DNA of 616 bases from Escherichia coli (GTDB lineage Bacteria; Pseudomonadota; Gammaproteobacteria; Enterobacterales; Enterobacteriaceae): NCBI RefSeq assembly GCF_003334255.1, contig NZ_QOWU01000210.1; one strand, written 5' to 3'. The notes beneath the pieces are model-generated. The model was given only the letters and a program-made list of their open reading frames with translations. It made no database searches and was not told the DNA's origin. This document shows, piece after piece, positions 1 through 616 of the stretch (its first letter is position 1; each line of letters starts with the position of its first letter). The position numbers and the translations under genes were made by a program.

Positions 1-616
1 CCTGAATCAGACGGCCCAATTCATCATATTCCCGGCGCAATTCCAGCCCGTCAGGCCCGGTGGCTGACGTTAACTGGTTGTGGTGGTTATAGTAAAACGC
101 CGATGCCCTGCCATCCGGCGTGGTTATGCGCGTGATGAGGCCCGTCACCACATCCGGGCTGTACTCTGTTGTCCTGCCTGCGGCATCCGTCTGTGCCCTG
201 AGCCTGCCCACGGCGTCAAACTGACTCTGCGTGACGCTGCCGTCCGCGTGTTCCTTTTTCACCACCCGCTTCAGCCCGGCTTCGCCCTGCGTGTGCAGCA
301 CTTCACGGCGGTCCAGGCTGTCGGTGATGGTGATGCGGTCTTTCTCATACTGATACGTGTAGCTTAAGCCTGCCGGGTTTAGCTGTTCTGTCACCCGCCC
401 GTCGCTGTCGTAACGGTAACGGATTTCCGGCCGGCCCGTGTGACGGTGCGCCACCATCCGGCCCCGGTATTTATCATCGTAAGTAAAGCTGCGCACCTGT
501 TTGCCACTACGGTCATACACCACCGCCAGTTCGCCGCGTGGCGTCCAGCCATAGCGCACCAGCGGCGCGGCAGGTAAATTCTCCGGGTATTCCGGGTCGT
601 GCGTCAGCCACACGGC
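1..616 (-). CDS. rhsD: Rhs-family core protein (YD-repeat polymorphic toxin scaffold), internal fragment, partial at both ends; RhsD/E-like rather than RhsA/B/C-like by recollection only
   Basis: Reverse-complement translation (first full codon at 616..614, last at 4..2) gives 205 codons with no stop: AVWLTHDPEYPENLPAAPLVRYGWTPRGELAVVYDRSGKQVRSFTYDDKYRGRMVAHRHTGRPEIRYRYDSDGRVTEQLNPAGLSYTYQYEKDRITITDSLDRREVLHTQGEAGLKRVVKKEHADGSVTQSQFDAVGRLRAQTDAAGRTTEYSPDVVTGLITRITTPDGRASAFYYNHHNQLTSATGPDGLELRREYDELGRLIQ. It contains at least eight YD-repeat-like units (e.g. VYDRSGKQV, RYRYDSDGRV, REYDELGRL), the hallmark of Rhs/YD-repeat proteins. The peptide matches my recollection of enterobacterial (E. coli-type) Rhs core sequence. 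The symbol rhsD is tentative: I cannot run an alignment, so the paralog could equally be another rhs copy. Family-level confidence is high, paralog-level confidence is low. Confidence 0.9.

Follow-up and report, generated by a model that had tools for sequence, protein, structure and literature searches.

The window, that is, the whole stretch of 616 nucleotides of Escherichia coli DNA analyzed here, lies within a 3.7-kb GC island with sharp boundaries in a genome of 51% GC, and it is coding sequence for the YD-repeat shell of an Rhs core. It contains 204 C, 173 G, 145 T and 94 A, which gives 377 G+C out of 616 bases (61.2%), and the GC content is high throughout the 616 nt, with values of 54-66% in 100-nt windows.

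Analysis of the six reading frames of the window revealed a single stop-free frame, frame 0 of the minus strand, with GC1, GC2 and GC3 values of 0.639, 0.468 and 0.727. The open frame and the identity to K-12 mark the window (positions 1-616, minus strand) as an internal segment of the Rhs core ORF and part of its YD-repeat shell. In E. coli K-12, codons 293-497 of rhsA and the same codons of rhsB are 100% identical to it at the nucleotide level; window bases 616 down to 2 on the minus strand correspond to these codons and base 1 begins the following one. Strain MG1655 of K-12 contains the exact window sequence in rhsA (L001 20001-20616, within the gene at L001 17359-21492) and in rhsB (in L002, where the gene lies at 19947-24182), and the window sequence alone does not tell rhsA from rhsB as its source. 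The full gene that holds it is annotated as RhsA in K-12, and the Rhs N-terminus, MSGKPAARQGDMT..., is conserved across loci.

The 205-residue translation gives four matches to Pfam RHS_repeat (PF05593) with E < 1e-5, plus two weak ones. The four RHS/YD repeat units, all on the minus strand, span residues 69-100 (window positions 317-412, i-E 6.1e-06), 133-171 (104-220, i-E 8.9e-08), 158-190 (47-145, i-E 3.6e-06) and 176-204 (5-91, i-E 4.4e-06), the last being truncated by the window edge. TIGR01643 (YD_repeat_2x) matches with an E-value of 2e-16 and its best stretch at residues 117-152. The NCBIfam profile NF041261 (RHS_core) is matched at positions 301-505 of 1261 with an E-value of 2.4e-117 and 393 bits, a score to be read against a whole-protein cut-off of 2000 bits that is out of reach for a 205-aa fragment. 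In Rhs effectors, the YD-repeat beta-shell forms a cocoon around the C-terminal toxin. The window translation aligns with Rhs YD-repeat shells in the PDB, with E-values from 2.7e-30 (Tse5, 8cp6) to 1e-13, and therefore encodes wall of such a toxin-enclosing cocoon; no solved structure of K-12 RhsA is found among the PDB matches to the window.

Antisense to the Rhs frame, positions 80-367 of the plus strand hold an ORF of 95 codons that starts with GTG, and several shorter ORFs are also seen. No support for these ORFs as genes was seen. They run antisense or out of frame to a well-supported open frame and were taken as by-products of GC-rich coding sequence, in which long ORFs on the opposite strand are to be expected. 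The coding (minus) strand of the window is purine-rich (A 145 vs T 94, G 204 vs C 173), and the AT skew of the plus strand falls to -0.45 at mid-window.

The host baseline consisted of seven regions of the E. coli K-12 chromosome from which the rhs elements had been removed, 312,475 bases in all, with a GC content of 50.83%. Host windows of 616 nt have a mean GC content of 50.8% with an SD of 5.3% and a maximum of 63.6%, and only 0.6% of them reach 61.2% (z = 1.95). A single 616-nt window at 61% is thus unusual, not unique, and the exceptional part is the extent, since the whole 3,741-nt core keeps 61.6-61.7% GC. With the core defined as running from the start codon to the PxxxxDPxGL motif (nt 1-3741), its GC content in K-12 is 61.6% for rhsA, 61.7% for rhsB, 61.3% for rhsC and 63.3% for rhsD. 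None of the 2,791 host windows of core length (3.7 kb) attains the core GC content, the maximum being 58.8%, and none of the 236 host ORFs reaches 61.2%, the maximum being 61.0%. In the 312-kb sample, the host 616-nt windows at or above 61.2% fall only in a type I-E CRISPR array, fecA, fecCD, nikBC, hycD and hypF (L004 4901-5700; L007 6501-7700 and 10501-11400; L002 26401-27200); fecA and fecCD belong to the IS-flanked fec cluster of K-12.

The edges of the island are sharp. The core-end motif is found at residue 1238 as PVTNTDPLGL and PISDIDPLGL (L001 and L002), and the C-terminal tips are AT-rich, with 40.2% GC in rhsA and 36.6% in rhsB. Downstream of rhsA, yibA has 33.7% GC and yibG 32.3%, while upstream the intergenic region and yibF have 39-53%, with 39% right before the start codon; the local flanks of rhsA stand at 52.4%. 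According to the annotation only, yibA adjoins rhsA downstream and is followed by two RHS repeat-associated core pseudogene fragments, yibG and an Imm57-family pseudogene. An earlier note on this DNA, made from its letters, had described an Rhs core of about 61% GC, set it against E. coli Rhs cores of about 62% and a genome average near 51%, and read it as a compositional island provided that the host is an enterobacterium. Its hand count of 378 G+C was off by one, and the rest agrees with what was measured: 61.2% in the window; 100% nucleotide identity to genes annotated rhsA, rhsB or rhsC, with Pfam RHS_repeat and NCBIfam RHS_core matches; 61.6, 61.7, 61.3 and 63.3% in the cores of rhsA to rhsD; and flanks of about 52%, a tip of 40% and downstream genes of 32-34%. 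The host average, which would leave the composition ordinary if it lay near 61%, is 50.8%.

To decompose the excess, host codon usage was taken from the 236 ORFs of the K-12 sample, which comprise 82,506 codons. The average host ORF has 51.9% GC, the window protein written with host codon usage would have 55.5%, and 61.1% is observed. The excess over the average host gene is therefore 9.2 points, of which about 3.6 come from the amino-acid make-up and about 5.7 from synonymous choice, that is, about 40% amino-acid composition and about 60% G/C-ending synonymous codons. The window GC2 is 0.468 compared to 0.409 in host ORFs, and its GC3 is 0.727 compared to 0.542 expected under host codon usage. 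The core contains 9.8% Arg, compared to 5.5% in host ORFs; it is also enriched in Thr, Tyr, Asp and Gly and depleted in Lys, Ile, Phe, Asn and Met. G/C-ending codons are preferred throughout the core (CGG 0.30 vs 0.11 and GTG 0.72 vs 0.36 in the host), the rare codons CGG and GGG are among those favored, and the core GC3 is 0.72 vs 0.56 in the host. The Karlin B of the core is 0.394, with values of 0.20-0.42 for the five longest host ORFs. With ribosomal-protein and elongation-factor genes as the reference set, the CAI of the core is 0.387, at the host median (host mean 0.406), and that of the window only is 0.34, the 27th percentile of the host. The comparison with highly expressed genes that the earlier note had suggested thus bears out a GC-shifted codon usage, with an adaptation of the core that is neither good nor particularly poor.

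Since host GC in the genome scan described below spans only 50-58%, too narrow a range for a regression of core on host, distant YD-shell homologues were searched with tblastn in plasmids and chromids (158 plasmid records). YD shells outside the enterics track the GC content of their hosts, with at most a small positive offset. The shell has 41.9% GC in Enterococcus (flanking ORFs 39.5%), 42.3% in Calothrix (38.4%), 46.5% in Streptococcus (35.6%, from two ORFs only) and 46.8% in Moraxella (45.4%), and it has 66.4% in Streptomyces (68.0%), 69.9% in Burkholderia (69.1%) and 71.0% in Ralstonia (65.1%). The excess of 10 points in E. coli, or 17 at GC3, is thus specific to the lineage and not intrinsic to the fold.

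To collect Rhs cores of other enterobacteria, species-representative genomes were searched with an alignment of varied homologues, seeded with Escherichia, Shigella, Salmonella and Citrobacter protein fragments of at most 358 aa, which yielded 37 loci. In E. albertii, Pseudocitrobacter, Buttiauxella, Citrobacter, Lelliottia, Phytobacter, Superficieibacter, Trabulsiella, Yokenella and Atlantibacter, the segment homologous to the window has 59-70% GC and a GC3 of 0.68-0.85, with flanks of 50-58%; the core of Citrobacter sp. Res13, described below, departs from this. The GC excess is found in E. albertii and in 10 of the 11 other enterobacterial genera sampled, Serratia silvae being the exception, with a core GC3 of 0.606 vs 0.622 in the flanking ORFs. 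The third-position divergence among the enteric cores is 0.40-0.51, near saturation. The highest enteric composition is seen in an Rhs fragment of Yokenella regensburgei (L033 260-2791; 70.8% GC, GC3 0.85); a second Yokenella core (L032) has 61.4% GC.

In Citrobacter sp. Res13-Sevr-PEB04-36, an Rhs ORF (L019 9092-13267) occupies the exact rhsA slot between yibF and yibH, in the order aldB-yiaY-selBA-yibF, rhs, yibH-yibI-mtlA. The flanks are collinear with K-12 (L019 1-6800 and 14150-18089 vs L001 28532-21660 and 13432-9481) and 79-85% identical to it. The core is 31% divergent against 15-21% for the flanks, and therefore belongs to another subfamily sitting in the rhsA slot; the comparison indicates that the slot was re-used or the core replaced. 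This core has 57.7% GC and a GC3 of 0.653, with 55.3% and 0.620 in the flanking ORFs. In the remaining genera, synteny with the K-12 slot neighborhoods was found for Atlantibacter only, where a stretch of the lld operon upstream of the rhs gene is shared with K-12 neighborhoods.

An E. coli-like rhs core, with 46-100% amino-acid identity, is also present on eight short contigs (L008, L011, L022, L034, L036, L041, L042 and L044) labeled as Oscillospiraceae, Lentisphaerae, Akkermansia, Collinsella and Comamonadaceae MAGs or as Rheinheimera and Methylobacterium drafts. On these contigs, among them L008 (98% identical) and L042 (100% over 77 aa), the core is most likely contaminating or mis-binned enterobacterial DNA. 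Among plasmid records, NZ_CP069926.1 is a 5,191-bp Klebsiella oxytoca 'plasmid' that holds part of rhsB, with 98% identity to the window; it seems to be a piece of an assembly that was deposited as a plasmid. Several E. coli 'plasmids' of 6.8-14.6 kb also carry an rhs core. No donor lineage was identified among the 37 genome loci or the 158 plasmid records.

Within E. coli, megablast detected the window segment in 3,885 of the 5,426 complete genomes. These carry 1-7 copies each (median three), and many of the copies match at 100% and have rhsA, rhsB or rhsC as their annotation. The rhsC gene lies next to kdp in 3,560 of the 5,426 genomes, and about a third of the genomes, e.g. that of Nissle, have nothing in this slot. 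The rhsA and rhsB genes differ at nt 17, 29, 77 and 80, once at 1892, and then densely from 3107. Between nt 81 and 3106, a tract that includes the window, there is only one differing site, a homogenization over about 3 kb that is consistent with recent gene conversion or duplication. In K-12, transposase genes or remnants of the ISAs1 family (H-repeat) lie just downstream of rhsB (L002 17860-18996) and rhsC (L052 1-1137), the H-repeat being a known accessory component of Rhs elements.

The age of the excess can be read at the rhsC locus. Over 11.7 kb, E. albertii (L009 1180-12865) is collinear with the K-12 rhsC locus (L052 16001-4259) with 91.7% identity, including the kdp operon, ybfA and the core, and rhsC was therefore in place before the species split. 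The rhsC core is 91.8% identical between the two species and kdpA to kdpD are 90.9-94.4% identical, so that the core has diverged about as fast as its neighbors since the split. Ancestral composition was estimated with a general Markov model of weak and strong bases on a three-leaf star tree that does not assume stationarity, with the cores of K-12 RhsD, E. albertii L016, C. youngae L018 and Phytobacter L015 as outgroups and 719-883 synonymous third positions depending on the outgroup. The common ancestor of RhsA and the E. albertii core had a GC3 of 0.71-0.75 (CI 0.66-0.80), compared to 0.73 and 0.71 today, and the long outgroup branches imply an equilibrium GC3 of 0.77-0.82 (CI 0.71-0.87); for the terminal branches, the CIs of the equilibria span 0 to 1. 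These estimates show that the GC excess is older than the E. coli/E. albertii split and that the deep branches between Rhs subfamilies evolved under a GC-rich regime. No decay of GC3 since the split is detectable in a comparison of little power, as only 1-2 points would be expected by a hand estimate.

More recent changes run toward AT. Polarized with close outgroups, the differences among K-12 rhsA, rhsB and rhsC are AT-ward by 73:48 overall and 50:27 at third positions; in the overall tally, changes specific to rhsA are counted twice. An excess of GC to AT changes among young variants is general in bacteria (PMC2936529), and amelioration was discarded as the explanation of the AT-ward excess in the rhs genes, as the same excess is seen in the native kdp control (four E. 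coli strains with E. albertii as the outgroup). At third positions of the rhsC core, there are 71 strong-to-weak against 42 weak-to-strong changes, implying an equilibrium GC3 of 0.59 for an actual 0.71, and in the adjacent native kdpABCD there are 135 against 87, implying 0.49 for an actual 0.60. The strong-to-weak share in the core is 0.63 vs 0.72 expected under the per-site rates of kdp (p = 0.036), a marginal hint of a higher local equilibrium in the core. Amelioration beyond that of native genes was not found in this comparison, the core being slightly less AT-biased than kdp relative to its composition. In a parsimony analysis, the differences between RhsA and E. albertii were polarized with three distant outgroups; its counts (19:8 and 36:6) were set aside, as it left 209 sites unpolarized and is biased in GC-rich sequence.

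As to the cause of the excess, we follow, with about even confidence, the classical model of import from a GC-richer background and slow decay toward the host. The synonymous layer of the excess would then be an inherited property of the enterobacterial Rhs-core lineage, which would have evolved mostly under a GC-rich substitution regime with an implied equilibrium GC3 of about 0.8 and would have had its high GC content by the time the ancestor shared by E. coli and E. albertii carried the rhsC locus. The cores may have diversified in, or circulated through, a GC-richer background and entered Escherichia before the split, with a drift toward host composition that would be too slow to erase the signal. 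Import is favored because YD shells equilibrate to other hosts and some enteric cores are near-equilibrated, and because the distribution is patchy and most other genera show no synteny with the K-12 slots. The sharp edges of the island, the GC-rich equilibrium of the long branches and the ISAs1 transposase genes beside rhsB and rhsC are further points in its favor. The composition of Serratia silvae and Citrobacter Res13, near that of their hosts, also argues against a universal maintaining force. The following count against import: the excess extends to E. albertii and 10 of the 11 enteric genera despite near-saturated third positions; no decay is detectable since the E. albertii split, in a test of little power; the recent AT-ward bias is no stronger than that of kdp; the CAI of the core is ordinary (0.387 vs 0.406); and no donor was found among the loci and plasmid records searched. 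If the enteric cores diverged inside enteric hosts (PMC2935791), their GC-rich state was maintained there and not imported.

That the GC-richness is actively kept in place, whatever its origin, is a possibility that we take seriously and consider somewhat improbable. GC-biased gene conversion (gBGC) or selection on G/C-ending codons would act on recombining, multi-copy, near-identical cores and hold their GC3 about 15 points above that of the host. Rhs elements are named for being rearrangement hot spots, and the homogenized tract of rhsA and rhsB, with one difference between nt 81 and 3106 and the window inside, fits such recombination. The presence of the excess in E. albertii and 10 other enteric genera although their synonymous divergence is close to saturation, the equilibrium GC3 of 0.77-0.82 on the long branches, and the vertical inheritance of rhsC since before the E. 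albertii split with a GC3 unchanged within error also speak for maintenance. So does the implied equilibrium of the young differences, 0.59 in the core vs 0.49 in kdp, but the p-value of 0.036 is marginal, comes from one locus and may be confounded by conversion from paralogues. Maintenance further agrees with rhs as an ancient core component of enterobacterial genomes (PMC2935791) and with the proposal of gBGC in bacteria (PMC4450053). However, the excess is absent in Serratia silvae and in Citrobacter Res13, the latter in the very rhsA slot, and YD shells outside the enterics track their hosts. The narrower proposal that enteric Rhs GC is a steady state produced by gBGC among multi-copy recombining cores, and not a fossil of foreign origin, seems unlikely to us.

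Two simpler explanations fare far worse than import or maintenance. The high GC content could be the plain amino-acid cost of encoding YD repeats, carrying no historical or local signal, and the window GC2 (0.468 vs 0.409 in the host) and the recoding with host codons (already 55.5% vs 51.9%) do go in that direction; as this accounts for only about 40% of the excess, leaves a GC3 of 0.727 where 0.542 is expected, and has to contend with homologous YD shells of 42-47% GC in low-GC hosts, the explanation is very improbable, and the codon decomposition together with these shells rules out amino-acid composition as the sole cause. Hardly credible is an ordinary local fluctuation of E. coli composition with no island, which could point to the few native 616-nt windows also at or above 61% (nikBC, hycD and hypF), a z of only 1.95 and the somewhat GC-rich local flanks (52.4%), but the level persists for 3.7 kb between sharp boundaries, host windows of equal length all stay at least 2.8 points below it, and this 3.7-kb comparison rules out chance fluctuation as the sole explanation.

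The choice between import and maintenance matters for the use of such islands. If the excess is a slowly decaying import, the core is a long-lived marker of ancient gene transfer. If biased gene conversion or selection sustains it locally, such compositional 'islands' should not count as evidence of transfer, and Rhs repeats become handy for measuring gBGC; should the gBGC reading itself be true, Rhs elements would offer a natural example of bacterial gBGC at the scale of a locus. For annotation, a stop-free YD-repeat frame of 61% GC in an enterobacterial genome reliably flags an Rhs core.

The GC-rich Rhs core in E. coli is already known, and one more window adds nothing new in that respect. 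Since the early 1990s, Rhs elements have been defined in composition by the pairing of a GC-rich core and an AT-rich tip. Wang, Zhao and Hill reportedly argued in 1998 that divergence of the subfamilies took place in a GC-rich background and preceded their entry into E. coli. The G+C-rich N-terminal core and the A+T-rich extension are established in Jackson et al. 2009 (PMC2935791), where rhs is treated as an ancient enterobacterial family and rhs genes of one clade in different genomes are said to have dissimilar base compositions (data not shown there). The core is believed to have been brought into E. coli from a high-GC organism, according to PMC7259588, which cites Hill et al. 1994, and horizontal acquisition, given in the earlier note as the classical reading, agrees with that account.

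Compared with known systems, the window is closest to the cores of K-12 RhsA and RhsB (RhsA-B-C-F subfamily), to which it is identical, being a fragment of these genes. The RhsD-E subfamily and other Enterobacteriaceae cores (e.g. Citrobacter, Phytobacter and Trabulsiella) have the same architecture and a GC-rich core but differ from the window-type core by 22-31% nucleotide divergence and mostly occupy different slots. The size of the excess varies among Enterobacteriaceae, and it is nearly absent in the Citrobacter Res13 core; the core of Serratia silvae (Yersiniaceae) is 45% divergent and without GC excess. The shell regions of the solved T6SS Rhs effectors Tse5 (8cp6), the S. bongori Rhs core (8qjd), Tse15 (8uy4) and P. 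protegens RhsA (7q97) are alignable to the window, yet they come from hosts other than E. coli, and the comparison with them is one of protein sequence. The genome of Serratia marcescens has about 59% GC, which places the core of its gene SMA1610 about 8 points above the host as well. In strain Db11, this clade II rhs gene has 67.7% GC in the core vs 46.4% in the tip (PMC2935791), the same two-part pattern as in the window's genes, in a clade that differs from the window's and a host GC-richer than E. coli.
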